Of a DNA stretch of 58,423 bases, positions 1-54,375 are shown piece after piece. Made by a program: the position numbers and the translations under genes. Every line of letters begins with the position of its first letter. The stretch's first letter is position 1. The notes beneath the pieces are model-generated. The model was not told the DNA's origin, did no database searches, and worked only from the letters and a program-made list of their open reading frames with translations. The stretch is from PVC group bacterium (GTDB lineage Bacteria > Auribacterota > Erginobacteria > Erginobacterales > PUNC01): the NCBI GenBank assembly GCA_003551625.1, contig PUNC01000113.1, forward strand, positions 1-58,423, given 5' to 3'.

Positions 1-1
1 C

Positions 2-1342
2 GAGGTGATCGCCGGGACGATCAACGGTTCGGGCTCCCTCCACGTCGAGGTCACCGGTACCGGCGACGAGACCAAGCTCTCGGGGATTATGCGGCTGGTC
101 TCCGAGGCGCAGGCCTCGAAGTCGCGCTCGCAGCACCTGGCCGACCGTGCCGCGCAGATCCTCACCGGCGTGGCCATTCTCGCCGCCGTCATCACGTTGA
201 TCGTTTGGCAACTCCTCGGCGCGCCGATCGACTTCTCGATCGTCCGCGTGGTGACAGTGCTCGTTATCGCCTGCCCGCACGCCCTCGGCCTGGCGGTGCC
301 TCTGGTGGTGGCGATCTCGACCACCCTCGGCGCCGGTAGCGGTCTGCTCGTGCGCGACCGCCGCGGTCTCGAGGAGGCGCGCAACCTTGAAACGGTCGTC
401 TTCGACAAGACCGGCACGCTCACCCTTGGGGAGCACCGGGTGGTGGGCCTGGCCGTGGCGGAGGGCGTCTCGGAGGAGGAAGCGCTTCGGATCGCCGCGG
501 GCGTCGAGGTTGAATCGGAGCACCCGATCGCCCGCGGCATCGTTCAGTCCGCGCGGGAACGGGGGATCGAGGTCCGGTCAGCCGAGGGCTTTCGCGCGCT
601 CCCCGGCCGAGGCGTCGCGGCGACCCTCGACGGTACCGAATACCGCGTGGGCGGCCCGGCGCTGCTCAAGACGGGAAACCCGCGCGTGCCGGACTATCTC
701 CGAAAGAAGGCCGAAGAAGCCGATCACCGCGGCCAGGCCGCCATCTACCTCCTCCGTAACCGCGAGGCGCTGGCCGTCTTCGCCGTGGCCGACGCCGTGC
801 GGCCCGAAAGCCGCCAGGCTGTCGACGCGCTCCACGCTCTCGGCATCGAGGTCGCCATGCTCACGGGGGACGCGCGAGCCGTGGCAGACGCCGTCGCCGC
901 CGAACTCGGTATCGATACCGTCTTTGCCGAGGTCCTGCCGGAGGACAAGGCCGCCAAGATCCAGGAGCTGCAGGCAGGGGGCAAACGCGTCGCTATGGTC
1001 GGCGATGGCGTCAACGACGCCCCCGCCCTCGCGACGGCCGAGATCGGCGTCGCCATCGGCGCCGGAACCGACGTGGCCGTCGAGGCCGGCCACATCGTGC
1101 TCGTTCGGTCCGATCCGCGCGACATCCCGCGGATCGTAACTCTGTCTCGCGCCACCTACCGGAAGATGCTCCAGAATCTCTGGTGGGCCGCCGGCTACAA
1201 CATCGCCGCCATCCCGCTGGCCGCCGGCGTCCTCGCCGCCTGGGGAATCCTCCTTACGCCGGCCCTCGGCGCGGCCCTTATGTCGGCCTCTACGGTAATC
1301 GTGGCGATCAACGCTCAACTCCTTAAGCGCGCGCGGCTATGA
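2..1342 (+). CDS. copB: Heavy-metal (copper) translocating P1B-type ATPase, CopB-like, 5' truncated by window
   Basis: CPH metal motif ([10 protein letters not shown]), DKTGTLT phosphorylation site, [18 protein letters not shown] and MSAST in last helices = P1B-3 signature. Confidence 0.9.
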
Positions 1343-1393
1343 AGGGAGTGCGCCTTCGTTTGAAGAAATTCGGCATAATGAATGAAAAAGCGG

Positions 1394-1425
1394 AATAAGT
1401 TAATAAGTAACCAACATCCCCTAAA
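1394..1425 (+). repeat. Repeat A copy 1 (AATAAGTTAATAAGTAACCAACATCCCCTAAA)
   Basis: Near-identical to 3347-3378, 4351-4382, 6314-6345. Confidence 0.9.
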
Positions 1426-1432
1426 AAGTAGC

Positions 1433-1460
1433 TTGCCTGGACCGGGATTTATCGTATTCT
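1433..1460 (+). promoter_or_regulatory. Putative sigma70 promoter for riboswitch/antiporter
   Basis: TTGCCT (1433-1438), 16-bp spacer, TATTCT (1455-1460), 7 nt before the riboswitch. Confidence 0.55.
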
Positions 1461-1467
1461 TTTCACC

Positions 1468-1520
1468 GGCGATGGGGTTCGCCCTGAACCGTCCCGCCGC
1501 GCGGGACTGATGACTCCTAC
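1468..1520 (+). ncRNA. Fluoride riboswitch (crcB motif)
   Basis: GGCGATGGGGTTCGCC...AACCG-TCCCGC/GCGGGA-CTGATGACTCCTAC matches the fluoride aptamer pattern GGCGAUGGnGUUCGCC...CURAUGACnCCUAC; located in the 5' UTR. Confidence 0.92.
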
Positions 1521-1582
1521 CGGTATTTTCCGCGCCGCCTTACCGAGCGGTTATTCAGCCAGAAGCCATTCCGGGAGGAGTT

Positions 1583-2830
1583 ATGGCCGTAAGCATCGCC
1601 GAGATCATCATCCTAAGCATTGTCGCTGACTGGGCCTTTCGCCAGATCCGCGTCCCCGGCCTGATCGGCATCCTCCTGGTCGGGATCCTTCTGGGGCCGC
1701 AGGTCCTCGGCCAGATCAGCCCCGACCTGCTGGCTATCGGCTCCGATCTGCGGATGATCGCCCTGATCGTCATCCTCCTGCGGGCCGGATTCGAGCTGAG
1801 CCGGAAGACCCTCCGCCGGGTAGGGGGGAAGTCCCTTCTCCTCGCCTTCGTCCCGGCCACCTGCGAGGGACTGGCGATCACCCTGATCGGACCCGCCCTG
1901 CTCGGCCTGACGTTTCTGGAGTCGGCGGTCCTCGGTTCGGTCCTGGCCGCCGTCTCTCCGGCGGTGGTGGTCCCCCGGATGATCGGCTTCATCAAGGAAC
2001 GAAGGGGGGCGAAGAAGGCCATCCCCTCGATGGTGCTGGCCGCCGCCTCGGTGGACGACGTTTACGTGATCGTGGTCCATACCGTCCTGGTCGGGCTCTA
2101 CGTTGGGAGGCGGATGAACCTGGCCTGGGAGATAACCGCCGTTCCCCTCTCCCTGGTTCTGGGCGCGGCGGCCGGGCTGGGGGTCGGCTGGCTACTCTAC
2201 CGGATCTTCGAGCGCTCGGATCTCTGGGCGACCAAGCAGGTGCTGATCGTAATCGCCTGCGCCATCTTTCTAGTCCGGCTCCAGTATTACCTGGCCGGGG
2301 TAGTTCCCTTCGCCGGCCTGGTGGCGGCGATGGCGATCGGTTTCGTCATCCTGGAACGGAGGGAGCGGATCGCCCACGCCATCTCCGCCCGGTTGGCCCG
2401 GGTTTGGATCTTCGCCGAGATTATCCTCTTCTCGATGGTCGGGGCCCAGGTGAACGTCGCGGTGGCCTGGCGGGCGGGGCTGGCGGGGATCGCCGTGATC
2501 CTGGTCGGCGTGGCCGCCCGCTCGTCCGGGGTGCTGGTCTGCCTGGCCGGGAGCGATCTGACGCGAAAGGAGCGGATATTCACGGCGGTGGCCTTTACGC
2601 CCAAGGCCACCGTCCAGGCGGCGATCGGGGCGAGCCCGCTGCTGGCGATGCGGGCGGCCGGGATGACGACCGGACCGGGGGAGGTCATCCTGGCCGTGGC
2701 GGTCCTGAGCATCCTCCTGACCGCTCCGGCCGGTTCCTGGGCGATCTCCGCCCTCGGCCGCCGCTGGCTTGCGGTGGAGCCGGAAGCCGGGGAGAACGCC
2801 TACCGGGCGGCGGTCGAAAGTTCGGGTTGA
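1583..2830 (+). CDS. Cation:proton antiporter (Na+/H+ exchanger family, NHA/SLC9B-like)
   Basis: ~12 hydrophobic segments; AVSPAVVVP, ASVDDV and PKATVQAAIG motifs; GGAGGAG RBS. Confidence 0.88.
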   Translation: MAVSIAEIIILSIVADWAFRQIRVPGLIGILLVGILLGPQVLGQISPDLLAIGSDLRMIALIVILLRAGFELSRKTLRRVGGKSLLLAFVPATCEGLAITLIGPALLGLTFLESAVLGSVLAAVSPAVVVPRMIGFIKERRGAKKAIPSMVLAAASVDDVYVIVVHTVLVGLYVGRRMNLAWEITAVPLSLVLGAAAGLGVGWLLYRIFERSDLWATKQVLIVIACAIFLVRLQYYLAGVVPFAGLVAAMAIGFVILERRERIAHAISARLARVWIFAEIILFSMVGAQVNVAVAWRAGLAGIAVILVGVAARSSGVLVCLAGSDLTRKERIFTAVAFTPKATVQAAIGASPLLAMRAAGMTTGPGEVILAVAVLSILLTAPAGSWAISALGRRWLAVEPEAGENAYRAAVESSG

Positions 2831-2852
2831 TATACAGAGACAAATCTTTCCA

Positions 2853-2888
2853 GGGTCACACCCCAAATAACAAGTTGGGGTGTGACCC
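2853..2888. repeat. Perfect 14-bp inverted repeat GGGTCACACCCCAA/TTGGGGTGTGACCC, 8-nt loop
   Basis: Read directly. Confidence 0.9.
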
Positions 2889-2996
2889 GGTTCTCAGTTC
2901 GGATCTCGAATTGGGTAAATGTCGGTGAATACTAAGAAAACGCCTGCTCAAAAAAATTGACCGGGAGGCCGGATTTCCAGAGGGGTAGGGGAAGGG

Positions 2997-3032
2997 AAGG
3001 GGCCGTCAAGCAGCGCCTGACGGCCCCTTTAA
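2997..3032 (+). terminator. Hairpin AAGGGGCCGTCA/TGACGGCCCCTT, possible intrinsic terminator
   Basis: 12-bp perfect arms followed by an AT-rich tail. Confidence 0.5.
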
Positions 3033-3346
3033 TATTTGTCGGAACATCGAGAAATAAGCTTGACTTTATCCGCCCGCAGCCGAAAACTTGAAAAAACCGG
3101 CGGCTGAACTGAAAGGTTTATGTCAAAGCGAACAATAATCTTTTTCAATAACGACCACCGTCCTCCCCCGAACGGACGGCATCGGCACATTCAAGGAACC
3201 TTCTCCACCCGCGCGAGATGAACTCCCCCGGGTTTTTTGGGGACCGGGTGAAAACGAGAGGATTCTCCTGGGATTCCCTTAAAACGATATCACAATCTGT
3301 GACATCCTCTTCCGGCCTGAAGTATTCTAAGTAGCAGGGGAGGAGG

Positions 3347-3378
3347 AATAAGTTAAAAAGCAAACAACGTCCCCTAAA
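3347..3378 (+). repeat. Repeat A copy 2
   Basis: AATAAGTTAAAAAGCAAACAACGTCCCCTAAA, identical to 4351-4382. Confidence 0.92.
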
Positions 3379-3505
3379 GTATGAAAAGTCCAGAAAGGGA
3401 TAAGGAGGGTGGCGAGCCTCTTCCTTGGTGGTCGTTTACTCAAGAAAGAAAGAAGCGGGAAGCTCGGCATAGGATGTGAAGTAGAACTAAATAAGGAGGA
3501 CTCGA

Positions 3506-3739
3506 ATGATGAGAGGAATAGGGGCGATTGAAATTGGGATCATTCTTGTCGTTATCCCTCTGGCGATCCTGTTGACGGTCCTGCCGTTCTGGAAAATTTG
3601 TAAGAAAGCGGGATTCCCGGGAGCGATATCGTTATTTATGCTTATTCCGATAGCCAACATTATCCTGCCGTTCTATCTCGCATTTGCGGAATGGCCGGTG
3701 CTGAAGCAGAAAGAACGAAAGGAAGAGATGCCGGCCTGA
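3506..3739 (+). CDS. Small membrane protein, hypothetical
   Basis: AAGGAGG RBS; two hydrophobic segments; PFWKICKKAGFPG...LIPIAN pattern. Confidence 0.8.
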   Translation: MMRGIGAIEIGIILVVIPLAILLTVLPFWKICKKAGFPGAISLFMLIPIANIILPFYLAFAEWPVLKQKERKEEMPA

Positions 3740-3878
3740 CTGGTTAAGTTGACTTTCGGAATGAGTGCCCTGAACATCAAAGAAGTCGGGCAATCACGCG
3801 GTAGAACCGTGAGAAAGCCGTGATAGACCGGATAGCCGAAAAGATACTTCTGGGCGGTATCGAGGGCTTCGTTTATTG

Positions 3879-3910
3879 ACCCGGGCGGGTTCAACCCGCC
3901 CGGGTTTTAT
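3879..3910 (+). terminator. 27-bp palindrome ACCCGGGCGGGTT-C-AACCCGCCCGGGT with T-rich tail
   Basis: Perfect 13-bp arms followed by TTTAT. Confidence 0.6.
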
Positions 3911-3955
3911 ATTTGCTCCGATGAAAGTTATGCTGCTCAATGGCTAGGAGGTCAG

Positions 3956-4342
3956 ATGAAAACGAACGTTAAAATAGCCTTAGACGCTACAGTCTGGTTT
4001 TTGTGCCTCTTCATAGCCGTCATTCTCAGACCGAGTATTTACAATTCGGAAACAGCTATTTCGTTTTCTATGGTGAGCGGAGCCCTGATGGTTGGATTTA
4101 TCTGGATTTTGCTCCGAGCGATTATTCACGACATAGCTAAAACATATCCGTATAAGTGGCTTTACGCGTTGCTGTCTATTGTAATCGTACCCATTGCCGC
4201 TATTCTTGGAATGCTCCCGTTTTTCATTCTTAGATCCCTACGAACCCCCAGGCTCATAACGGCTCTTCCTCTTTTATCAGCGGGTCTTATCTGGGGGATT
4301 GTTTCGTCTTTAATTTTCCCCATTGCTCGGCACGATGAATGA
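3956..4342 (+). CDS. Hypothetical 4-TM membrane protein
   Basis: AGGAGG RBS, hydrophobic, AT-rich. Confidence 0.75.
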   Translation: MKTNVKIALDATVWFLCLFIAVILRPSIYNSETAISFSMVSGALMVGFIWILLRAIIHDIAKTYPYKWLYALLSIVIVPIAAILGMLPFFILRSLRTPRLITALPLLSAGLIWGIVSSLIFPIARHDE

Positions 4343-4350
4343 AGAAGCGG

Positions 4351-4382
4351 AATAAGTTAAAAAGCAAACAACGTCCCCTAAA
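4351..4382 (+). repeat. Repeat A copy 3
   Basis: Identical to copy 2; starts 8 nt after the stop of 3956..4342. Confidence 0.92.
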
Positions 4383-4395
4383 TGGCCCGGTGGCT

Positions 4396-4428
4396 GGGCG
4401 TAAAGTCAAGAGTAAAGATTTGACCCCA
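4396..4428 (+). repeat. Repeat B copy 1 (GGGCGTAAAGTCAAGAGTAAAGATTTGACCCCA)
   Basis: 31/33 identical to 6367-6399. Confidence 0.92.
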
Positions 4429-4435
4429 ATAGGTT

Positions 4436-4882
4436 ATGGATACAAAGAGAGTCAATGAAATCAAGACCCACCTGGGGAAAAAAGAATCTCGGGAACTGCT
4501 TAAAATCTACAAAGAGAATAACAGGGACGAATACGTCGATGAAGCATTTGAGGCCGTCAGACAGTTGCTCGTAGAACGGAAACTGAGTATTCCGCGCCAA
4601 TCACCCTTTCCCCGTCCTACAAAACCCGAGCCGATAGCGAAGGCCGAGTATGTCGATCTTGTCACCGTATATCGAACCGGCAACCAGGCAGTCTTAACCG
4701 TAGCCAAATCATTGCTGGAGGAAGCCGGGATTCGATACCTGGCCAAAGGAGAAGGCTTGCAGGACATCATAGGCGGCGGGCGATTCGGGGCCGGCTTCAA
4801 TCTTGTCGCCGGCCCGGTAGAACTTCAAGTGCCCCGGGAATGCGCCGCGGAGGCCGGGAAGATTCTTTCAAAATTGCAATAA
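4436..4882 (+). CDS. DUF2007-like domain protein (putative signal-transducing)
   Basis: C-terminal LVTVY...AKSLLEEAGI...VELQVP...AxKIL pattern. Confidence 0.7.
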   Translation: MDTKRVNEIKTHLGKKESRELLKIYKENNRDEYVDEAFEAVRQLLVERKLSIPRQSPFPRPTKPEPIAKAEYVDLVTVYRTGNQAVLTVAKSLLEEAGIRYLAKGEGLQDIIGGGRFGAGFNLVAGPVELQVPRECAAEAGKILSKLQ

Positions 4883-4942
4883 ATATTCCTTGAAGAACGA
4901 ATTTAATTTTACGAATAGTTCGGCTTGAAAAGAGATTGAGGT

Positions 4943-5581
4943 ATGGGCGTATCCATACACTATCGAGGTCGAATCGACAGCGCGGCGCTGCTCCCGTCCC
5001 TTCGTGAGGAAGTCGCCGATATCGCCCACTCAATGGGTTGGCCCTCGACAACTCTGGACGATGACTGGTCAATTTCTCCCGACGCGAATCTGGCCACTGA
5101 CGGCAGGATTCAAGGCCACCTTGGACTCAAGGGTATCCAGATCACTCCGCATCCAGACTCGGAACCCCTCGTTCTGTTTTTCGACCGTGACGGATATATT
5201 CGATCTCCCGTAACTATGGCGCTGATCCTTGACGGCACCCTGCAGCCGAAGACGGCTTGGGTTTCGATGAAAACCCAGTTCGCCGCCCCCGATACCCACG
5301 TGTGGGTTATCGGCCTCCTCAAGTATCTGAAGAAACGCTACATCTCCAATCTTGAAGTGTCGGACGAGAGCGGATACTGGGATACCGGCGACAGGCGGAA
5401 ATTGGAGGAGAGTATGGCCTTTCTCAACAGCAAGCTTAATCAACTCTCTGCCAAAATCTCGTCTGGTCGCATAGGTGACCTGACGGGACTGACGGCGGAT
5501 CAGATCGCGTCACGGCTCGAGCATTTGTTCCTGAACGATGAGGAGCTAGGCGTCGAAAAACGCCCTGAACGCGACAAGTGA
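4943..5581 (+). CDS. Hypothetical protein
   Basis: 212 aa, GAGG RBS, MGVSIHYRG start, KTQFA and VSDESGYW motifs. Confidence 0.8.
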   Translation: MGVSIHYRGRIDSAALLPSLREEVADIAHSMGWPSTTLDDDWSISPDANLATDGRIQGHLGLKGIQITPHPDSEPLVLFFDRDGYIRSPVTMALILDGTLQPKTAWVSMKTQFAAPDTHVWVIGLLKYLKKRYISNLEVSDESGYWDTGDRRKLEESMAFLNSKLNQLSAKISSGRIGDLTGLTADQIASRLEHLFLNDEELGVEKRPERDK

Positions 5582-5620
5582 AAGCCGCGACGGAGCGCTG
5601 CTTCTCCTTGCGCGTTAGGT
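5564..5620 (+). other. attC-like imperfect hairpin
   Basis: CCTGAAC...GTTAGGT; AACGCG[A]CAAG[T]GAAAGC pairs with GCTTCTCCTTGCGCGTT; right end fits GTTRRRY. Confidence 0.5.
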
Positions 5621-5706
5621 GAAGCGGCAGCCCAGAAAGGATAATAAGCGAATGGCGGTGGCTTTGTTCCCTTGCGCATACACCGTTTGCCGGAAAAAAG
5701 AAGGGG

Positions 5707-5737
5707 AGTAACTTAACAACTTAACTCCGTCCCTAAC
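5707..5737 (+). repeat. Degenerate repeat A copy
   Basis: AGTAACTTAACAACTTAACTCCGTCCCTAAC aligns to repeat A with several substitutions. Confidence 0.65.
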
Positions 5738-5757
5738 GCTTTCCGGAGGTCGGAATT

Positions 5758-6318
5758 ATGCCTAAAACGGTAATACCGGCAGAGCGGATTCAGCGGATAA
5801 TCTATCTGGTTCGCGGCCAAAAGGTAATATTGGATCGGGATCTGGCGGGTTTGTATGGGGTTCCCACCAAGGCCTTAAAGCAGGCGGTTCGCCGGAACCC
5901 AAAACGCTTTCCTAAAGATTTTATGTTTGTGCTTAAACAGCAGGAATTTAAGAACTTGAGGTCACAATTTGTGACCTCAAGTTCTTGGGGCGGGAGCCGT
6001 TATCTGCCTATGGTATTTACCGAATAGGGCGTGGCAATGCTCTCCAGCGTTCTGAATAGTCCCCGAGCCATCCAGGTCAACATCGCGATAATGCGGACCT
6101 TCGTTCAGCTGCGTAAGCTTATGGCCACCCACGCCGGACTGGCTCAAAAGCTGGAAGAATTAGAGAAGAAATACGACGCCCAGTTTCAGATTGTCTTTGA
6201 AGCGATAAGGCGGCTTATAGTTGAGCCGGAACCGAAGCTTCCCCGCCGCAGGATCGGCTTCCACGTAAAGGAGAAGCGGGGGAAATACGGCCGCCGCGTC
6301 GCAGGAAGGGCGAAATAA
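5758..6318 (+). pseudogene. ORF6N/KilA-N-type DNA-binding protein interrupted by in-frame TAG at 6025-6027
   Basis: RGQKVILDRDLAGLYGV...RNPKRFPKDFMF...[14 protein letters not shown]; the family reads FTEQGVAM, so CAG>TAG is likely. Confidence 0.85.
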
Positions 6319-6345
6319 GTTAACAAGTAAACAACGTCCCCTAAA
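6314..6345 (+). repeat. Repeat A copy 4
   Basis: AATAAGTTAACAAGTAAACAACGTCCCCTAAA; supplies the TAA stop of the ORF6N gene. Confidence 0.92.
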
Positions 6346-6366
6346 GCTTGAGGCTCTGAACCGTCC

Positions 6367-6399
6367 GGGCGAAAAGTCAAGAGTAAAGACTTGACCCCA
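6367..6399 (+). repeat. Repeat B copy 2
   Basis: GGGCGAAAAGTCAAGAGTAAAGACTTGACCCCA. Confidence 0.92.
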
Positions 6400-6421
6400 T
6401 ATTACGATGGAGGAGGCAACA

Positions 6422-6829
6422 ATGGACAACAGCCAAGGTAAGCTCAAATCGTGGGGTTTATTCTTTGCCGGCCTGGGCATTCTTTTGATTGGCATCGCAG
6501 TTCTCATTAACGTATTGAAGCATCCTTCACGTCTCAAATTCGCGGATTTATTCGGACCACCCGGAACTGAAACAATAACCAGGACTGTGCGTTCATTTGA
6601 TTCTGCCCCTCCAAGTACGATTTCGCCTTTTCAGAAGATAATAACCGACGAAGAATTTAATGAATATTATGAGTCGCTTAAGGAAGCTTTATCTGAATGG
6701 GATTTCAAAGAAATTATCCTAGAAAAGATTGAAAGCGAGGAATTCAAAGAGAAATTGAGGCGAAAAATCGAAGAGTTGCCGGCTATAATGGAAATTAAGG
6801 CAACCAGAGTCGAGGAGATATACCAATGA
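6422..6829 (+). CDS. Hypothetical protein with N-terminal membrane anchor
   Basis: GGAGGAGG RBS before ATG 6422; one TM segment then a charged helical region. Confidence 0.7.
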   Translation: MDNSQGKLKSWGLFFAGLGILLIGIAVLINVLKHPSRLKFADLFGPPGTETITRTVRSFDSAPPSTISPFQKIITDEEFNEYYESLKEALSEWDFKEIILEKIESEEFKEKLRRKIEELPAIMEIKATRVEEIYQ

Positions 6830-6888
6830 GTCGCTTCAGCGGTTTGAGACCGCCTTTCGGCTTTAGCGGGTGTACCGGCGGTTAGAAA

Positions 6889-7251
6889 ATGAAAGAGAAG
6901 ATAATTAGATACATAATAGCCGGAATAATCTCGGGTATTTTCTTCTATCTTGCCTTTTGGACGGGTCAAATTCTGGTTTGCGTATGGGGGGTTATTTTCT
7001 TTCGTTTGATTATGAATCCGCAGATTCTTAAGGAAAATGTCGGTGTGCCCCGCCTGCCGGCTAAAGATATTCTATCTCTCACAGCATTTTTTCTCGTCAT
7101 TGCTGCTTTTGTAGTCTTCATACTCAAAATCAGAAATGTTGAGGCTTTCAAAATCGCATCTTCAAACTGGATAGTTCTTTTCTTGCTGTGGTTAGCCCTA
7201 ATGGTTGGCAACTTGAGGGCATTTAACCCTGAAGAAAGCGATTTAGCCTAA
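6889..7251 (+). CDS. Hypothetical membrane protein
   Basis: AT-rich ORF with ~4 hydrophobic segments. Confidence 0.7.
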   Translation: MKEKIIRYIIAGIISGIFFYLAFWTGQILVCVWGVIFFRLIMNPQILKENVGVPRLPAKDILSLTAFFLVIAAFVVFILKIRNVEAFKIASSNWIVLFLLWLALMVGNLRAFNPEESDLA

Positions 7252-7289
7252 CGAATCATCGCTTGTGATATGCCTAACGGAGCAAAGGG

Positions 7290-7766
7290 ATGATATATAT
7301 CGCCGGAATAATTCTCATTATTATCGGGTTTGTCTGGCCGTTCCTAACCGGCTGGAGTTTAACTTTAATTGTATTTCCGCTCGGTATTTTAGCCTTGTTG
7401 AGTCCCGGCAGATATATTCCAAAAACAGCAAATTGGAATAAATGGGCGCGGGCGGGATTACTTGGTTATTTATTGGTTGTGTTAATCCACTGGATCATTT
7501 CTTACTTGGCAGTCGCATCGCCCGTTTTCTGTAACACCTGGGGCGGTTGTTATCTTGCTATAGTATTTAGCTGGATCTCCGCGCCTGTTGATTTGCTGTT
7601 GTCTCGTATCTCTCCACTTGAAACCATTCAGCTTCCTGATGGAGGATGGCAAATTAGAATCAGTTATATTCGAGCCACGACATCCAATTTTATGAGTATT
7701 ATCGTTTACCTGCTCGCTGGAATTCTGATCGGAAAATGGCTTCAGGTACGGAGGAGTAAGTGTTGA
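7290..7766 (+). CDS. Hypothetical membrane protein
   Basis: AT-rich, multiple hydrophobic segments. Confidence 0.7.
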   Translation: MIYIAGIILIIIGFVWPFLTGWSLTLIVFPLGILALLSPGRYIPKTANWNKWARAGLLGYLLVVLIHWIISYLAVASPVFCNTWGGCYLAIVFSWISAPVDLLLSRISPLETIQLPDGGWQIRISYIRATTSNFMSIIVYLLAGILIGKWLQVRRSKC

Positions 7767-7859
7767 CCTCAGGCTGCTCAAATAATCAGTTCCCCCTCAA
7801 ATTCCCTTGAAAAACAGAAGTTAACCTGACCACCAGCGCTAAATTAAAGAGAATTATAA

Positions 7860-8273
7860 ATGAGAAAATGTCCAGCTTGTGGCGAATGGAATTCCGATGA
7901 TTCAACCACCTGCAAATCGTGCGCCACTCCGCTATCGGTTAACACGACTGAATCCCCCAAGCAACCTTTGACAAAACGGGCTCTGTTTATAGTCGGCTTA
8001 AGGCTGATTGGCATTTATCTGATGATATTTGGTTTCCTTGGTGCCCTGCATAAAATGGGTACCAATTATGTAATGCTACGGCTTGTTGCTCGGACTATAA
8101 ATCTTGGATTAGATGAATTTGCGGGAGCTTTTATAGAGAGCATGCAATATTTAAGCATAACCACTGGGGTAATCTGGGATCTGATACGAATTGTTGTAGG
8201 TCTTTATTTATGCAGAGGAGGGAAACTTATTATTAAATTTGTTGGGATGAAAGACGAAGTTCCTATCGGATAA
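7860..8273 (+). CDS. Zinc-ribbon membrane protein
   Basis: CPACG...CKSCA at the N-terminus, then two TM segments. Confidence 0.75.
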   Translation: MRKCPACGEWNSDDSTTCKSCATPLSVNTTESPKQPLTKRALFIVGLRLIGIYLMIFGFLGALHKMGTNYVMLRLVARTINLGLDEFAGAFIESMQYLSITTGVIWDLIRIVVGLYLCRGGKLIIKFVGMKDEVPIG

Positions 8274-8299
8274 TAATCCAAAAGCCGGAAGACAGAGGG

Positions 8300-8554
8300 A
8301 TGATAGTAGAGATCATATTCCTTAGCGTATTTGGGTTAATCTCGCTGCTGTGCGCGATTCACCTCTGGAGGCGGCGCGACGCGACCTTGCTGATGAAGAT
8401 TCGCTGGACCATAGTCATCTTCATTCCCCTGGCGGGCCCGATTTTCTATGGAGGATTCTTCAAGGCTCCTGACCGATCCGGTTACCGGAAACACTGGCCG
8501 GAAGACCGCGGCGGTCTCCCGCCCGGAGGGGAATTTACCGGCCGATGGCGATAA
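8300..8554 (+). CDS. Small membrane protein, PLDc_N-like hairpin
   Basis: KIRWTIVIFIPLAGPIFY pattern after a TM segment. Confidence 0.6.
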   Translation: MIVEIIFLSVFGLISLLCAIHLWRRRDATLLMKIRWTIVIFIPLAGPIFYGGFFKAPDRSGYRKHWPEDRGGLPPGGEFTGRWR

Positions 8555-8560
8555 AAAACC

Positions 8561-8651
8561 TGGGGTCAAACCTTAGCAATGATACCTTTTCTTCGATGAT
8601 CAGTGATCCGCAAAAGACGGCAAAGACAGGGTCAGTCCGTGCATATATGCA
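8561..8651 (-). repeat. Two inverted repeat-B-like motifs (TGGGGTCAAACC at 8561; AGGGTCAGTCCGTGCATATATGCA at 8628)
   Basis: TGGGGTCAAA is the reverse complement of the TTTGACCCCA end of repeat B. Confidence 0.55.
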
Positions 8652-8790
8652 AAATGACCGAAAGACCGGATTTTGAAGTGCAAAACGAATAGAAGGGGTG
8701 TGGAGACGGTTTGAAGAGCTGGTCTCAATTCGCGACCAGCTCAAAGATTTAGAGGAGACCGTTTGGGACGGTCAGTGAGGGTGGGTGGCG

Positions 8791-9178
8791 GAGATTGCTT
8801 CGTCGGCCCGAAGGTTTTCGGGCCTCCTCGCAATGACGGTTCATACGGAAGGATGTGGAGATTGCTTCGTCGTCCCCCACCGGGATCGGTGGGGGACTTC
8901 TCGCAATGACGGCGAGTGAAGGCGCCCGCCGGAGATTGCTTCGTCCCCCTCGCTCCGCTCGGGGTCCTCGCAATGACGGTGAGAGTGGATGCTTGATGGG
9001 GGTTTTCTTGCTTTTTGGTTTCGGTTTCGGCGGCGGCTGCGGTAGCATATCGTCAGCTTCTTCAGGTTATGTGGGTAGATGCAATTGATCATCGCTGGGC
9101 CGGGGGTCTAATCCTGTTCTGAGGAATCGAAGGAATGACTCTTCGGTTGAGATTGCTTCGCTTCGCTCGCAATGACGG
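8791..9178. repeat. Cluster of four REP-like units GAGATTGCTTCG-[hairpin]-CTCGCAATGACGG
   Basis: Copies at 8791-8839, 8858-8912, 8932-8979, 9149-9178. Confidence 0.9.
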
Positions 9179-9253
9179 TCAATGGAGTCTTCCGGGGTTT
9201 TCCGCGATGACGATTTGGTTTTGTCGGGCGGCCTCTAAAAGCTTGCGTTATAT

Positions 9254-10120
9254 ATGGCGGCATACTACCTGATTCTTCTGCTGGGATGGCTGGTGCGGGC
9301 GCTGCCGGCGCCGTTCGCCCGCCGGCTCGGACGGTCGGCGGGCCGCCTGTTTTACCATCTGGACCGCCGGCACCGGCGGATCGCCCTGGACAACCTGCGG
9401 GCGGTCTTTCCGGAAAAGACCGAAGAATGGCGACGCCGGACCGCGCGGGAATCTTTCGGCTGGATGGGTTTCAACCTGACCGAATTTCTCAGAATCCCCC
9501 TGGTGGCCCGGGCCGGGCCGGAAGCCGTCTTCCGGCCGCGGGGGCTGGAGAAGGTGAACGCCGCCCGCGCCCGGGGGAAGGGTATAGTCTTCGTCACCTT
9601 TCATTACGGAAACTGGGAATACCTGGGTTTCTCCCCCCGTTTCCTGGGATTTCCGGTGGCCGTGGTGGCCCAGGAGATCAAGAACCCCGCCGTGGACGGA
9701 TTGATCAACGATATCCGGGAGCTGACCGGGGTTGAAGTCCTGCCCAAGAACGAAAGCTCGGCCGTTCTGTTGAGCCTGCTCCGGCGCAACTCGGCGGTGG
9801 CGATCGTGGCCGACCAGAGAGCGCGGAAGATGGGGGTGAAGATCGACTTCCTCGGCCGCCCCGCTTCGGCGACCGCCGCCCCGGCGGTCCTGGCCCTCCG
9901 TTCCGGCGCGGCGGTGATACCGGTTTTTATTGATTTTGACGGTGAAGGCGGTTATGAGGTGGTCTTCGGCGATGAGATCGCCCCCGCCGCCGGCCTCCCC
10001 CCGACCGACGCCGTCCGGGAGCTGACCGGGAGGATAAACCGGGCGCTGGCCGATAGGTTGCGGGCCGCTCCCGAACCCTGGATGTGGGGCCATCGCCGCT
10101 GGCTGGACGCCGCGAGATGA
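9254..10120 (+). CDS. lpxL: Lipid A late acyltransferase (LpxL/HtrB family)
   Basis: HYGNWE H-x4-E motif, VADQ, PEPWMWGHRRW. Confidence 0.85.
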   Translation: MAAYYLILLLGWLVRALPAPFARRLGRSAGRLFYHLDRRHRRIALDNLRAVFPEKTEEWRRRTARESFGWMGFNLTEFLRIPLVARAGPEAVFRPRGLEKVNAARARGKGIVFVTFHYGNWEYLGFSPRFLGFPVAVVAQEIKNPAVDGLINDIRELTGVEVLPKNESSAVLLSLLRRNSAVAIVADQRARKMGVKIDFLGRPASATAAPAVLALRSGAAVIPVFIDFDGEGGYEVVFGDEIAPAAGLPPTDAVRELTGRINRALADRLRAAPEPWMWGHRRWLDAAR

Positions 10121-11139
10121 GAGAGATCTCCAAGATTTTGATCAAGGCCCCCAACTGGCTGGGAGACTGCGTCTTCGCCGCTCCCGCGGCGGGGAAGCTG
10201 AAGGCCGACCATCCCGCCGCCCGGATCTCGGTTCTGGCCAAAGATTCCCTGGCGCCGTTCTGGGAGCTGGTCCCCGGGGTGGACGCGGTCATCGGATACG
10301 AGAAGCGGCGGGGATGGGCGGGGCTGCGGGCGGCGGCGGCTACGGTGGCGGGACTGAGGCGGGAGAGGTATGACCTGGCGGTAATCTTCCCGCGCTCGTT
10401 CTCCTCGGCCCTGTGGTGTTTCACGGCCGGAATCGCCGAGCGGCGGGGATACGCCGCCGAAGGCCGCCGGCTGTTGCTCAACCGGGTGGTCGAGCCGAAG
10501 ACTGATTACCGGCAAACCCCCCGGGTGGACTACTACTACGCCCTGGTCGGCGATCCCGGAAAGGACCGGCCCCGGCCCCGGCTGGAGATACCGGAACGGG
10601 AGATCGAGGAGGCCCGGGACCAACTCCGGCGGCTTGTCGGCTCCGACCGGATCGAAAACCCGGTGGGCCTCCATCCGGGGGGGTATTACGGTTCGGCCAA
10701 GCGCTGGCCGGTAGAACATTTCAGCCGCCTGGCCCGGCGACTGGCCCGTTCCGGCCGGACGGTGCTGGTTTTCGGAGGTCAAGGCGACCGGGAGACCGCC
10801 GGGAAGATCGTTTCCGGGGCCCCGTCCGGGGTGTGGAGCCTCGCCGGCGAGACGGGATTGAAACGGCTGGCGGCTTTGCTTAAACTCTGCCGGGTCGTGG
10901 TGGCCAACGACAGCGGTCCCCTTCATCTCGCCGCCGCCGTGGAGACGGCGGTGGTCGGGCTGTTCGGATCGACGAATCCCGTCGCCACCGGTCCCCGGGG
11001 AAAGGCGGTCAGGGTCATCTATCGCGGTCTCCCCTGTAGCCCCTGCCTGCTCCGGACCTGCCCGAAGGGCCTGGAATGTATGGTTTCGATCGGCGTTGAA
11101 GAAGTGATGGCCGCGGTGGAGGAGCTCTGGAATAGTTAA
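10117..11139 (+). CDS. waaF: LPS heptosyltransferase II (GT9)
   Basis: APNWLGD, GSAKRWP, NDSGPLHLAAA; ATGA overlap with the upstream stop. Confidence 0.85.
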   Translation: MREISKILIKAPNWLGDCVFAAPAAGKLKADHPAARISVLAKDSLAPFWELVPGVDAVIGYEKRRGWAGLRAAAATVAGLRRERYDLAVIFPRSFSSALWCFTAGIAERRGYAAEGRRLLLNRVVEPKTDYRQTPRVDYYYALVGDPGKDRPRPRLEIPEREIEEARDQLRRLVGSDRIENPVGLHPGGYYGSAKRWPVEHFSRLARRLARSGRTVLVFGGQGDRETAGKIVSGAPSGVWSLAGETGLKRLAALLKLCRVVVANDSGPLHLAAAVETAVVGLFGSTNPVATGPRGKAVRVIYRGLPCSPCLLRTCPKGLECMVSIGVEEVMAAVEELWNS

Positions 11140-11145
11140 GGAATT

Positions 11146-12204
11146 ATGAAAGCGAATCTCCAGTTCAAGCCGCGGAGCGTCCTGATAGTTAAACTGGGCT
11201 CGATCGGCGACGTGGTCAATTCCCTGCCGCTGGCCAACGCCCTCAAGGACTCCCGGCCCGATCTCCGGCTGGGCTGGCTGGTGGAGCCCAAATCCCTGCC
11301 GGTGATCGAGGACCACGACGCCGTGGACGAGGTTATCGTCTTCCGCCGGGAACTCGGCCTCTCCGGTGTCGGGCGGGCGTTGCGGGAGATCAGGCTCTTC
11401 CGGCCGGACCTGGTCGTGGATCTTCAGCGGATCCTGCGCAGCGGCTTCTTCACCTTCTTTTCCGGTTGCCGCTACCGGCTCGGTTTCAACCGCGGCCGCT
11501 GCAAGGAGATGTCCTGGCTCTTCTACAACCGGAGAATCCCCGCCGCCGATTCCGGCGAGCATATGGTGACCCAGTACCTGGAATTCGCCTCTTACCTGGG
11601 CCTGCCGGAAACGGAGGCGGTCTTCAAGCTTCCGATCGGGGAGAGCGAACGCGCCCGCGCCACCCGGCTCCTGCCGCCGGCGGCCTTGAAGGGCGAAATC
11701 ATCTGTCTCAATCTCGGCGCCACCAAGCCGGCCAACCGCTGGCCGGACGGCCACTGGGCCCGGCTGGCGGATCTGCTGGCCTCCCGCGACGACACCACGG
11801 TCGTCCTGACCGGCGGGGAAGGGGACGTCGCCGCCGCCCGCTCGGTGCTGGCGGAATCGCGGTCCGCCGAGGCGCTGGTGGACCTGGCCGGCCGGACGAC
11901 GCTGAAGGAGCTGGGCGGTCTTTACGATCTGGCCGCGGCCGTGGTCTCTTCCGACAGCGGTCCGATGCACATCGCCTCGGCCCTGGGGACCAGGACGATC
12001 GGCCTGTTCGGGCCCTCCTCCCCCCGCCGCACCGGCCCCTGGAACCATCTCCAGCTTGTCGTCCGAAGCGGGGAGGAATGCTCTCCCTGCGGGAAGAGAC
12101 GCTGCCGGCGGGATGACTGTATGAGCGCGATCCCGCCGGAGGAGGTCTTCCGGCGGCTCACCGCGCCGGAAGAGGAGGGCGGCGGTGACCGGAAGGATGG
12201 CTGA
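11146..12204 (+). CDS. GT9 heptosyltransferase (WaaC/WaaF-like)
   Basis: KLGSIGDVV, DSGPMHIA, LFGPS. Confidence 0.88.
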   Translation: MKANLQFKPRSVLIVKLGSIGDVVNSLPLANALKDSRPDLRLGWLVEPKSLPVIEDHDAVDEVIVFRRELGLSGVGRALREIRLFRPDLVVDLQRILRSGFFTFFSGCRYRLGFNRGRCKEMSWLFYNRRIPAADSGEHMVTQYLEFASYLGLPETEAVFKLPIGESERARATRLLPPAALKGEIICLNLGATKPANRWPDGHWARLADLLASRDDTTVVLTGGEGDVAAARSVLAESRSAEALVDLAGRTTLKELGGLYDLAAAVVSSDSGPMHIASALGTRTIGLFGPSSPRRTGPWNHLQLVVRSGEECSPCGKRRCRRDDCMSAIPPEEVFRRLTAPEEEGGGDRKDG

Positions 12205-18736: not shown

Positions 18737-19741
18737 ATGAAGAAGGGAATGATAGTGGTCACCGGCGGCGCCGGCTTTATCGGAAGCGCCCTCATTCGGG
18801 AGTTGAACCGGTCGGGCCGGGAGGAGATAGTCGTCGTGGATTCTCTCGGGTCGGGGGATAAGTGGAGGAATCTCAATGGGTTGAGGTTCGCCGATTACCT
18901 GGACAAGGAGGATTTCCTCCAGCAGGTCCGGGCCGGTAATTTCGGCCCGCCCCCGGAAGCGATCTTCCATCTCGGGGCCTGCTCTTCCACCACCGAGCTC
19001 GACGTCGGCTATTTGATGAGAAACAACTTCGAATACAGCAAATCCCTGGCCCGTTACTGCCTGAACAGTTCGGTTCGTCTGATCTACGCTTCCTCGGCCG
19101 CCACTTACGGCGACGGGGGGATCGGCTTTAAAGATTCCGAAGACGATCTTCCGCGGCTGCGGCCCCTCAACCCCTACGGTTTTTCCAAGCAGCTTTTCGA
19201 TCTCTGGGCCTGGCGAGCCGGCGCGCTGGGAAAAATCGTCGGCCTGAAGTATTTCAATGTCTTCGGCCCCAACGAATATCACAAGGGTGAGATGCGCAGT
19301 ATGGTCTGCAAGGGCTACGAACAGATCCGTTCCGCCGGCCGGCTCAAACTCTTCAAATCCGAGCGGCCGGAATTCGGCGACGGGGAGCAGGAGAGGGACT
19401 TCCTTTACGTCAAGGACGCGGCGCGGATGACACTTTTCTTCCTCTCGCGCCCGGAAGCCCGCGGGATATTCAATATCGGCAGCGGCGAGGTCCACACCTG
19501 GAATCAGCTGGCCGGCGCCCTCTTCCGGGCCGCGGGGCTTCCCCCCGCGATCGAATACATTCCCCTGCCGGACCGGCTGCGGGACCGTTATCAATATCAT
19601 ACGCGGGCCGAAATCGCGAAACTCCGGTCGGCCGGATACTCCGCTCCGCCGACGCCGCTGGCCGAGGCGGTGGAAGACTACGTCCGCAATTATCTCGACG
19701 GCCGGCGCCACCTGGGTGAGGTTGCCAATGAAGAAGGATGA
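18737..19741 (+). CDS. hldD: ADP-L-glycero-D-manno-heptose 6-epimerase
   Basis: VTGGAGFIGS, GACSSTTE, YASSAATYG, YGFSK, EYHKGEMRS. Confidence 0.95.
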   Translation: MKKGMIVVTGGAGFIGSALIRELNRSGREEIVVVDSLGSGDKWRNLNGLRFADYLDKEDFLQQVRAGNFGPPPEAIFHLGACSSTTELDVGYLMRNNFEYSKSLARYCLNSSVRLIYASSAATYGDGGIGFKDSEDDLPRLRPLNPYGFSKQLFDLWAWRAGALGKIVGLKYFNVFGPNEYHKGEMRSMVCKGYEQIRSAGRLKLFKSERPEFGDGEQERDFLYVKDAARMTLFFLSRPEARGIFNIGSGEVHTWNQLAGALFRAAGLPPAIEYIPLPDRLRDRYQYHTRAEIAKLRSAGYSAPPTPLAEAVEDYVRNYLDGRRHLGEVANEEG

Positions 19742-20699
19742 ACGTCGGATCATCGCCGATTGGGCCGGCAAGCGGGTGCTGGTGGTGGGGGATGTAATGC
19801 TCGACGAGTATATCTGGGGGGAGGTGGAGCGGATATCCCCGGAAGCCCCGGTTCCGGTGGTGAGGGTGAAGGGCCGGAGCTGGACGGCCGGGGGGGCCGC
19901 CAACGTGGCCCACAATGTGGCGGCGCTGGGAGGTTCGGTGGAACTGGTCGGCCTGATCGGCCGGGATCAGCAGGGCAAGCTGCTCAAGAGGGTTATGGAA
20001 CGGGCGGGGATCGGTACCGGAGGGCTGATCGTCTCCTCTTCGCGGCCGACGGTGACCAAATCGCGGATTCTGGCGGGCCATCAGCAGGTGGTCAGGATCG
20101 ACACCGAGCAGCCCGGCCGGATCGCCGCCCCGGAGCGCCGCGAAGCGATTATGAGGGCGAAAGCGCTGGCGGGTTCCGTCGACGCGGTGATCATCGAAGA
20201 CTACTCCAAGGGGCTGCTGGACCAGGAGATGATCGACCGGCTGATCGGGTTGTCGCTGGCCCGCGACTGTCCGGTGGTGGCCGACCCCAACGAAAACCAA
20301 CGTTACCGCTATCGCGGGGCCACCCTGGTCACTCCCAACCGGAAAGAGGCCCTGGTGGTCTCCGGCCTTCCCCGCGAGACTCCGACCGCCGAACTCGGCC
20401 GCCATCTGCTCCGGCGCTGGGGGCCGCGGGCCCTTCTGATCACGCTCGGCGAGGACGGGATGTGCCTCTTCGAGCGCCGGAAGAAGCCCTTCTTCATCCC
20501 CACCGTGGCCCGAGAGGTATTCGACGTTTCCGGCGCCGGCGACACGGTGGTGGGCACGCTGGCGCTGGCCCTGGCCGCCGGAGCCGATTTTTCGTCCGCG
20601 GCCGAACTCGCCAATCGCGCCGCCGGGATTGTGGTGGGCAAGCTGGGCACCGCGACCGCGAGCGCGTCGGAACTGCTGGAAGCCGTGGCGGAGCGATGA
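19728..20699 (+). CDS. rfaE1: D-glycero-D-manno-heptose-7-phosphate kinase (RfaE domain I)
   Basis: VGDVMLDEY, RISPEAPVPV, DVSGAGDTV. Confidence 0.93.
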   Translation: MKKDERRIIADWAGKRVLVVGDVMLDEYIWGEVERISPEAPVPVVRVKGRSWTAGGAANVAHNVAALGGSVELVGLIGRDQQGKLLKRVMERAGIGTGGLIVSSSRPTVTKSRILAGHQQVVRIDTEQPGRIAAPERREAIMRAKALAGSVDAVIIEDYSKGLLDQEMIDRLIGLSLARDCPVVADPNENQRYRYRGATLVTPNRKEALVVSGLPRETPTAELGRHLLRRWGPRALLITLGEDGMCLFERRKKPFFIPTVAREVFDVSGAGDTVVGTLALALAAGADFSSAAELANRAAGIVVGKLGTATASASELLEAVAER

Positions 20700-54215: not shown

Positions 54216-54371
54216 ATGTCTCAACATCCAAGTTTTGGCGGAAAGGGCAAGATCAAGCCCAAGCGCAACGTGCTGAAACGGCACGAGCGAATCCGGCGCC
54301 TTCAGGAGTCGGGCAAGTGGGAAGAGGAGAAGAAGGTCTTCAAGCTTCCCAAGACCCCTATTCAGAAATGA
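54216..54371 (+). CDS. PVC-type small basic protein (51 aa; not in the ORF track)
   Basis: MSQHPSF...KRNVLKRHERI..L...GKW....VFKLPK; AAGGA RBS. Confidence 0.88.
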   Translation: MSQHPSFGGKGKIKPKRNVLKRHERIRRLQESGKWEEEKKVFKLPKTPIQK

Positions 54372-54375
54372 CCGA

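Follow-up and report, generated by a model that had tools for sequence, protein, structure and literature searches.

CCCC-ended repeats in a variable gene island of a PVC group bacterium are probably stray terminal inverted repeats of TIRtron-type Y1 transposase units

Contig PUNC01000113.1 of the PVC group bacterium assembly GCA_003551625.1 (C81 in the numbering used here; the window denotes this whole stretch of 58,423 nucleotides) contains, near its left end, a run of small genes interspersed with short repeats whose ends read CCCC. The assembly amounts to 2.80 Mb in 243 contigs, with a guanine-plus-cytosine (GC) fraction of 0.60. The region is bordered on the left by a P-type ATPase gene, which ends at 1342, and on the right by the lipid A acyltransferase gene lpxL (9254-10120; PF03279, 193.6 bits). 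In a preliminary description of the window, the repeats had been interpreted as single-gene capture sites of an undescribed, integrase-free cassette system, acted upon in trans by an enzyme suspected to be an HUH Y1 transposase. Here, the repeats and the genes between them are described and compared with the remainder of the genome, with related genomes and with metagenomic contigs, and an origin of the repeats in Y1 transposase units of a known class is argued for.

Between the flanking genes, 11-12 open reading frames (ORFs) were found, every one on the + strand. Ten small ORFs, all +, make up a block of low GC content at ∼2830-8650 (0.41-0.56, as against 0.63-0.72 outside). The ∼11 small, mostly AT-richer and co-oriented genes first described could be recognized, with the exception that the leftmost, a Na+/H+ exchanger gene (1583..2830, + strand; PF00999, 139.4 bits), is of backbone composition (GC 0.68) and shares 84% DNA identity with the related genome G009. 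Ahead of it lies a fluoride riboswitch (1459..1526, + strand; Rfam RF01734, 56.5 bits against a gathering score of 34, E = 8e-14), which is part of the backbone and outside the repeat system; it was the only match in an Rfam scan of positions 1-10000, in which no family matched the repeats. The left half of the block contains o77 (3506..3739, 77 aa) and o128 (3956..4342, 128 aa), for which no family was found, a 148-aa ORF with a DUF2007 domain (4436..4882; PF09413, 33.9 bits), o212 (4943..5581, 212 aa; no family found), which has homologs in 7 of 78 further genomes from the phylum, and an ORF6N-domain gene (5758..6318; PF10543, 124.1 bits when read through). The right half contains o140 (6407..6829, 140 aa) and o158 (7290..7766, 158 aa), again with no family found, on either side of o120 (6889..7251, 120 aa), which appears to be of integron-cassette descent; these are followed by Znr137 (7860..8273, 137 aa), with an N-terminal zinc ribbon and membrane helices (PF13248, 24.7 bits, below the cut-off), and o84 (8300..8554, 84 aa), with a PLDc_N domain (PF13396, 25.5 bits). 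Spacers measure 26-93 nt between 6829 and 8300; those of the left half are long and carry terminator-like hairpins. From its sequence, the ORF6N gene looks nonsense-mutated, with an in-frame TAG at 6028-6030 where a 93% identical fragment on contig C21 reads CAG; read through, it matched the PADLOC candidate family PDC-S05 (190.8 bits). Its coding sequence also holds a perfect 18-nt inverted repeat (5950-5986) that is kept at 88-97% in ORF6N genes of genomes G012 and G036.

The repeats of this region fall into five families, A-E, and each copy described here is best regarded as a probable solo terminal inverted repeat (TIR); the strand given is that on which the GGGG head reads first. Family A occupies the − strand at 1394..1425, 3347..3378, 4351..4382 and 6314..6345. 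Its 32-mer was matched three times in the window at ≤3 mismatches, as against none in 100 shuffles, and the copy at 1394 is a fourth, with four mismatches. The copies at 3347 and 4351 are identical, over 34 nt, and positions 1370-1425 are 88% alike over 56 nt to an extended unit at 4327-4382. A degenerate fifth copy on the − strand (5705..5735), judged by eye to be of the variant type found in genome G011, with two substitutions and one deletion relative to the copies there, is missed by motif scans that allow substitutions only. Family B is present on the − strand at 4396..4428 and 6367..6399 (94% alike), the latter within an extended unit that starts at ∼6348. The succession A-then-B occurs twice (4351/4396 and 6314/6367), with order and orientation unchanged. 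Family D is represented by a 27-nt TIR with a 13-nt inverted partial copy at 2851..2890, and the two fold as a hairpin of −18.1 kcal/mol (DNA parameters) resembling a repetitive extragenic palindrome (REP) doublet. Up to this point the positions agree with the preliminary description, including its CCCC palindrome at 2853. The motifs at 8561/8628, which had been taken for inverted B-like copies, belong instead to two further families, C (8562..8585, + strand) and E (8628..8654, + strand), both headed GGGGTCA.

As had been proposed, the repeats are found at gene boundaries, in that all of the motifs sit between ORFs or across stop codons. A or B is present at only ∼5 of 12 boundaries, all in the left half. 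No motif lies between any of the five genes at 6407-8554, and the four boundaries from 6829 to 8300 are without A or B. The window copies of A and B all share one orientation and stand at gene ends, with B ending 8-22 nt ahead of start codons. The ORF6N stop codon lies within the A copy at 6314, and the final codons of o128 lie within an extended A repeat.

An enzyme that could account for such repeats is found on other contigs. Across the genome, Y1_Tnp gave 14 matches at 13 loci, 13 of the 14 above the Pfam cut-off, and in a scan confined to Y1 transposases and integron integrases no match to either was obtained on C81. Inspection of printed flanks together with motif scans revealed that six Y1 genes, with products of 335-341 aa, each lie between inverted copies of a single motif. 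The six units measure 1073-1116 bp; the two TIRs of a pair differ by 0-2 mismatches, and the 3′ TIR overlaps the end of the gene. The TIRs are ∼25-35 nt long, with a GGGG(T/A)C(A/G) box at the outer tip and, in some families, a small hairpin next to it. Family A flanks a gene on C87 (TIRs 19208-19236 and 20287-20315, gene 19271-20296), family B one on C93 (TIRs 53309-53336 and 54354-54381), family C one on C64 (8136-8159 and 9228-9251), family D one on C77 (1546-1572 and 2609-2635) and family E one on C97 (13012-13038 and 14065-14091); the sixth unit, on C187, defines family F (10131-10158 and 11180-11207). Window copies of B, C, D and E show 0-2 mismatches to these TIRs: none for B at 4396 (match at 4400), C at 8562, D at 2851 and E at 8628, and two for B at 6367 (match at 6371). 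The window copies of A differ from the C87 TIR at 3-4 of 29 positions (4 for the copy at 1394). Given that each motif family flanks its own Y1 gene in inverted orientation, the region holds five families with the enzyme gene in trans, and the scan of the genome and its relatives for A and B with adjacent genes that the preliminary description had called for thus bears out its guess of a trans-acting HUH Y1 enzyme related to REP-associated tyrosine transposases (RAYTs) and IS200. Units of this architecture, in which RAYT-like genes lie between long inverted repeats, have been named TIRtrons, and their enzymes TIRYTs (Di Nocera et al. 2013, PMC3733652). In the present reading A, B, the 2851 hairpin and the 8562 and 8628 motifs are solo TIRs of five different TIRtrons on other contigs; as part of the whole explanation developed below, this reading is given a probability of ∼0.7.

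The canonical A TIR comprises a GTAG tag ahead of a 6-bp AT-rich stem (−2.8 kcal/mol), whereas the window copies of A do not fold (0.0 kcal/mol, no hairpin, for that at 3347). Like that of ORF6N, the stop codon of the C87 enzyme gene lies within A, and the presence of gene ends (ORF6N, the C87 enzyme, o128) inside A units is as expected from insertion into gene 3′ ends. The five Y1 proteins scanned gave Y1_Tnp scores of 34.7-49.2 bits (cut-off 23), with 34.7 for the C87 protein, and a PDB sequence search with the latter gave no match at E ≤ 0.01. Of nine aligned paralogs, eight keep both the HUH motif, NH(A/F/Y/V/I)H, and Y(I/V)HLNP, with G_C74 reading YIDLN; the tyrosine of YIHLNP is presumed, by analogy to RAYTs, to be the catalytic residue. 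With identities of 22-50% and a C-terminal part of ∼200 aa that can be aligned among them, the proteins appear to be old paralogs.

Solo copies cluster in low-GC accessory islands. When up to 22% mismatches were allowed, seven families (A-G) accounted for 60 copies, 13 unit-flanking and 47 solo, at 3-20 per family. Nine of the 47 solo copies lie within these 7.3 kb (0.26% of the assembly), and 28 have a neighbor within 3 kb, whereas random placement gave 3.8 on average and never more than 12 (1000 trials). Median local GC at solo copies was 0.555 compared with 0.619 (p = 1.5e-7, or 2.8e-5 for the 38 copies outside this contig), where the control consisted of whole-genome rather than intergenic positions, so that part of the effect may be trivial. 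Family C has three copies in the genome, that at 8562 being the sole one outside its own unit, and family E has 12. Similar motif-gene-motif runs occur among small accessory genes on C21, where one A, four B and two F copies surround a gene pair named by eye as candidate AbiEi/AbiEii-like, and on C96, where two B and three E copies have the opposite orientation relative to genes from that in the window. Tandem B copies are present in this genome on C21 and C189. Among 13 other genomes of the order, motif B was found in four (12 copies in G010) and motif A in two (11 copies in G011, whose variant resembles the copy at 5705), and reversed-pattern controls for both gave no match in these relatives. 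The exact 18-nt form of A was found in 22 stretches of a species-level genome collection, seven in the metagenome-assembled genome (MAG) G011 and four in a MAG labeled Thermodesulfobacteriota; with ∼35 chance matches expected by our own estimate, only the multi-copy genomes are meaningful.

Several other repeat arrangements were noted. Composites of ∼170 nt lie at C111 1262-1429 and 8524-8691 and on C180 and C230. One end of each is formed by a B repeat and the other by an inverted G-family repeat; having an internal sequence in common, they resemble miniature inverted-repeat elements whose ends are hybrid. Just to the right of the island, a long hairpin repeat, GAGATTGCTTCG...CTCGCAATGACGG, is present four or five times at 8790-9190. 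Its halves occur 76 and 88 times on ∼50 contigs of this genome and are also widespread among genomes of the order and phylum, and depth at these positions was very high in three of the public sequencing runs described below (X2-X4). An A-like tip, GGGACGGTGTCAACTTGTCAACT or a related form, was seen by eye after the stop codon of the o212 homolog in two of four printed loci (G002:C69 and G005:C67), in the orientation opposite to that of the window, and a recurrent link between the o212 family and A-type repeats may exist.

The description of the locus as integrase-free holds for the contig but not for the genome. An IntI gene is encoded on another contig (C17:2769-3722; TIGR02249, 378.8 bits against a cut-off of 265), whereas all of 14 control genomes scored below the cut-off. 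Its product has Phage_integrase and SAM_4 domains, and the two genes downstream are each followed by an attC-like hairpin; this integron of the genome carries two large cassettes, of 662 and 351 aa, at C17 4415-7544. The product of o120 is 57% identical over 118 aa to two genes of G013:C7, where intI occupies 233078-234010: one of them, 620 nt after intI, is the first cassette beside it, and the second copy lies 19 kb further on. DNA homology of the o120 region to both begins at 6881, at a GTTAGAA core. Integron crossover falls at G|TT, and the homology would therefore start where a cassette boundary should fall. Znr137 is 66% identical to a gene of G013:C33 that lies downstream of a strong attC site.

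Sites resembling attC were sought with two models, both derived from the array of one relative. R1, a covariance model, was built from four G013 sites, including that of G013:C33 (24 pairs, 7 with compensatory changes), and found ∼45 sites in the G013 array; the broader R2 comprises 48 hits, three of which are reverse-strand echoes that were kept in. With filters off, the two top matches of both models in the 58-kb window fell at ORF ends inside the island. One is a weak attC-like relic at the 3′ end of o212 (5551..5630, + strand; R2 19 bits, E = 0.0013, best in the window; R1 10.5 bits, second best); the other is a decayed attC-like relic that ends in GTTAGAA directly ahead of the o120 start (6820..6889, + strand; R1 13.5 bits, E = 0.11, best in the window), 10 of whose 24 pairs are non-standard. 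Neither model matched at the other nine island boundaries, and no match overlapped A or B at E ≤ 10. In a whole-genome scan, R2 returned C21:4654-4712 only (15.5 bits) and missed the attC sites of C17, so the model is narrow. Homologs bounded by attC were found for o120 and Znr137 only, 2 of the 11 genes; apart from o212, the other genes had no homolog in the loci searched. Taken together, at least one gene, o120, appears from these comparisons to come from integron cassettes, as Znr137 probably does, with only decayed attC sites left in the window. The preliminary dismissal of an integron is accordingly withdrawn, given the IntI of this genome and the likely descent of o120, whereas its statement that A and B are not themselves attC sites is upheld, with no model match and no stem in the window A copies. 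An attC scan of our own, based on regular expressions and pairing, proved too noisy and was dropped. In relatives, attC sites (G013:C33 ∼5820-6050; G011:C364 6400-8594) are interrupted by short palindromic repeats, including the CGCTTCG...CGCGATGAC type, which suggests that REP-like elements insert into attC loops.

Variation of the island between strains could be followed in part. In order-level relatives the ATPase and lpxL genes lie on different contigs, so that synteny could not be compared, and a metagenome contig scan with LpxL returned relatives at ≤38% identity only. Four public runs contained parts of the stretch, with word shares of 0.94 for X1, which is probably the source run, 0.32 for X2/X3, which come from another study, and 0.08 for X4. 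The comparison was made between positions 1-12000 and the contigs of these runs, which are at most 2.3 kb long. In X2/X3, backbone pieces were 97.4-98.4% identical and island pieces 92-95.5%, save for 7278-8552 (o158-Znr137-o84) at 99.8%, or 3 differences in 1275; this block suggests a recent exchange between lineages, or a different, closer strain.

Gene order differs in the contigs from the other study, and the island is strain-variable. One X2/X3 contig passes from ∼4859-4890 straight to 7278, a difference of 2387 nt, and leaves the window past 8552. Another comprises 4903-5727 (o212 and the degenerate A copy), then 3368-3403, then an insertion at 3403/3404. In a further joint, B (to 4431, 3 nt beyond the repeat) and TTCAC lead to 3774, a position at which the window has no B. 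The clear inter-gene joints thus include one inside A (5727→3368, with 6 shared letters) and one beside B, and 2 of the 4, the joint 4890→7278 and the break at 4903, fall at no A-E motif; the proposed correspondence between breakpoints and motifs was seen for half of them. A minus-strand G|TT reading of the joints 3773|3774, 4890|4891 and 7277|7278 (as xxxxAAC boxes) was considered and rejected, as it fits 7277|7278 only. Tandem forms of A (6345→6304, with 10 letters between) and B (4429→4398, with ATA between) were present in X2/X3, and a tandem form of E (8672→8620) in X2-X4; repeat number therefore differs between populations, and these forms show REP-like behavior of the repeats. Only the left edge (2791-3373 and 1345-1638) is linked to backbone in the X2/X3 pieces listed, depth on the island contigs is roughly half that of the backbone, and a joint at a repeat in a metagenome contig may stem from another locus or organism. 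Bins 6401-7200 are without cover in X2-X4, from which no inference of absence is drawn. At 1394-1425, the X2/X3 copy of A differs by five substitutions within 18 nt and by small insertions, far above the divergence of the flanks, and may be a different A subtype placed at the same site by gene conversion or replacement. In the relative G002 (C117), homologs of o212 and ORF6N stand in the same succession, and the spacer that separates them, which aligns poorly with that of the window, holds no A copy; the occurrence of this pair without A favors insertion of the repeat into an existing gene pair.

Three other origins of the array were weighed against an origin of the repeats as stray TIRs. If the direct copies of A and B were working sites, a Y1 transposase acting in trans would cut and rejoin single strands at the GGGG tips, and so excise, insert and shuffle genes. 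The single orientation of A and B at gene ends, the cognate Y1 genes in the genome, the identity of two A copies and the similar runs on C21 and C96 would suit such an activity, as would the X2/X3 joints inside A (5727→3368) and from B (+3 nt) to 3774. In the "peel and paste" mechanism of IS200/IS605 enzymes, the two hairpins used lie on one strand, so direct repeats would offer a workable geometry. Set against this, two joints in X2/X3 coincide with no motif, the five genes of 6407-8554 have none between them, the o212-ORF6N adjacency is kept in G002 without a repeat, the window copies of A lack the canonical TIR hairpin, and the motifs on C96 are reversed relative to the genes; the contigs are, moreover, short, and their repeat joints may originate in another locus or organism. 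What could be tested therefore lends no support to cassette capture by the repeats, and such working sites are regarded as quite unlikely. The repeats might alternatively be regulatory DNA (promoters, operators or terminators), with A an extracytoplasmic function (ECF) sigma-type promoter, GGAAT-N18/19-CGTC, and B a 5′ leader hairpin. A is located upstream of + strand genes, its tip stands 0-7 nt from a start codon on C27 and C63, the ends of B stand close to start codons in the window, and three window copies of A begin GGAAT. This pentamer is, however, missing from the other 6 of the 9 listed A copies, on which ground the ECF-type promoter was rejected; the entire "spacer" is conserved, unlike that of a promoter, and the motifs may face either way with respect to genes and flank Y1 genes as inverted pairs. 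A sigma-70-like TTGCCT-N16-TATTCT, read by eye, already lies between the A copy at 1394 and the riboswitch, and no Rfam family matched, so that a regulatory origin is highly improbable.

The whole array might, by a further account, be a decaying integron cassette array built by the IntI of this genome, in which repeats A-E only occupy spacers. Clusters of attC sites without an integrase are known as CALINs, and the small co-oriented ORFs, which from 6829 to 8300 stand 26-93 nt apart, resemble one. IntI with two cassettes on C17, the match of o120 to the first cassette beside intI in G013:C7 with homology from the GTTAGAA core, the Znr137 homolog behind a strong attC in G013:C33 and the top attC-model matches at 5551-5630 and 6820-6889 all point in this direction. 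These two matches of 13.5-19 bits are, however, the only ones at the island boundaries, the other nine having none; the genome-wide scan with R2 gave a single site of 15.5 bits, no attC was found near o212 homologs at nine loci, the X2/X3 joints are not at + strand G|TT cores, and the left half, with its long spacers and terminator-like hairpins, is unlike cassette arrays. Descent of the whole array from integron cassettes is thus considered unlikely, and the data are better accommodated by stray TIRtron TIRs in a variable island of partly integron-cassette descent, the explanation favored here. Insertion of the repeats into an existing island is favored by the G002 adjacency, the stop codons within A, the lost A stem and the repeat-free half, and these same observations, together with the two joints at no motif, speak against A and B as single-gene capture sites.

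According to the favored explanation, each TIRYT enzyme would act in trans on its own repeat, probably through single-stranded DNA, by analogy with REP/RAYT and IS200/IS605 systems. Short repeats would thereby be copied to places where insertion is tolerated, namely the intergenic spacers and the 3′ ends of genes in accessory islands of higher AT content, and would pile up there, often adjoining or in tandem. The island at ∼2830-8650 would be a strain-variable accessory region whose right part, o120 at least, derives from integron cassettes, and the repeats would be passengers, at most extra recombination hot spots, rather than gene-capture sites. The pairing of repeat and enzyme, the copy numbers, the clustering, the strain differences and the integron links are observations, to which the activity of the enzymes and the route of copying are added as a proposal.

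Several observations weigh against this explanation. The window copies of A do not fold while two of them are identical over 34 nt, a pattern more in keeping with recent duplication or gene conversion than with old decay; the A-then-B order, found twice in the same orientation, is not predicted by passive insertion; and the X2/X3 joints inside A (6 shared letters) and 3 nt beyond B would fit site-specific exchange equally. Since the identical A copies, the repeated A-B order and the join inside A are left unexplained, gene capture is retained as a minor alternative. As to the class of the enzymes, Bac_DnaA_C scored 23.6 bits in the C87 protein, below the cut-off of 31.5, and was detected in none of the four other proteins scanned. 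The GGGGWSAS box is exact in F only (1 of 6 families), A-E being one or two letters off, with tips of GGGGTCAA in B and C, AGGGTCAC in D, AGGGTCAG in E and GGGGACGT in A, and no TIRYT enzyme activity is shown in the portions consulted of PMC3733652 or PMC6006769. The clustering may be distorted by the low copy numbers (3-20 per family) and the fragmentation of the assembly into 243 contigs. On the integron side, the window offers weak attC evidence (13.5-19 bits, many broken pairs, models from one array), and R2 gave no match in the nine loci of o212 homologs. A hybrid of these accounts, in which TIRYTs cut and join single strands at direct solo TIRs and move the genes between them, so that five HUH enzyme lineages have taken over an old integron array, is judged very unlikely; if true, it would amount to integrase-independent cassette shuffling by five enzyme lineages at one hot spot.

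The finding as it stands is an annotation result and not a new system, and the epithet "undescribed" applied to the array at first has to be given up, given that TIRtrons and TIRYTs with GGGGWSAS appear in PMC3733652 and are classed in PMC6006769. TIRYT/TIRtron elements have been named in print yet hardly studied, and full-text searches found the terms in two papers only. The present genome is a compact natural example: it has at least six paralogous units, each paired with its own repeat, the repeats are concentrated in accessory islands, and in a second population tandem repeat copy number differs and one junction lies inside a repeat. Enzyme activity and target choice are thereby made testable, as is a possible role of such repeats in accelerating the reshuffling of accessory genes or old integron arrays. 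A full-text literature search returned no work linking REP-associated tyrosine transposases with attC and integrons.

Comparison with known systems places the units as follows. The small unrelated co-oriented genes in an AT-richer block, the IntI of the genome, the o120 homologs that are cassettes with a G|TTAGAA boundary and the two attC-like relics are shared with integrons and CALINs; by contrast, the locus has no integrase or attI, its attC sites are mostly missing or decayed, and the spacers of its left half are long. A and B were rejected as attC sites, with no model match and no stem in the window copies of A. With IS200/IS605 the units have in common a Y1 HUH enzyme, short DNA hairpins beside a conserved cleavage sequence and no target duplication (PMC6006769). 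They differ in having inverted-repeat ends rather than direct subterminal hairpins, in that the units look single-copy whereas the repeats are multi-copy, and in that no tnpB was seen in the printed flanks of the Y1 genes. REP/RAYT systems likewise have short repeats, each family of which is paired with a single-copy Y1 gene flanked by inverted copies, and these repeats are intergenic, often downstream of genes, and clustered (PMC3116915 and PMC3333891, in the parts consulted). Here, by contrast, GTAG is present in canonical A only and B-F are without the tag, the stems are tiny or absent instead of GC-rich palindromes, copies number tens rather than hundreds, and the proteins fall below the cut-off of NCBIfam REP_Tyr_transpos (NF047646; 58 and 72.2 bits against 80). 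Assignment to the classical REP/RAYT class was rejected on these scores and on the lack of GTAG with a GC-rich palindrome in high copy.

The closest agreement is with TIRtrons. Many TIRtron repeats are reported to share GGGGWSAS (PMC3733652), given as GGGG[AT][CG]A[CG] by Quentin et al. 2018 (PMC6006769), who place 20 of the 26 TIRYTs in subclass 2.1, with a C-terminal Bac_DnaA_C/helix-turn-helix (HTH) domain (Bac_DnaA_C, HTH_23 or HTH_28). As in TIRtrons, the Y1 HUH gene is longer than classical RAYTs, the inverted repeats have a tip of (nearly) GGGGWSAS, the 3′ repeat overlaps the gene end, several paralogous units per genome each have their own repeat, and solo, dimeric or clustered repeat copies are moderately abundant. 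In the present genome there are six to nine paralogous units in 2.8 Mb, and a single island of 7 kb brings together five families; only one family has the exact box, the C-terminal HTH is barely detectable by Pfam, and tandem repeats are gained at the strain level, which the consulted parts of PMC3733652 and PMC6006769 do not report. With reservations as to the box, the HTH domain and the REP score below cut-off, the sequences of the units fit the TIRtron/TIRYT class, and the repeats of the island would accordingly be new members of a known, little-studied kind, the solo TIRs of TIRtrons.

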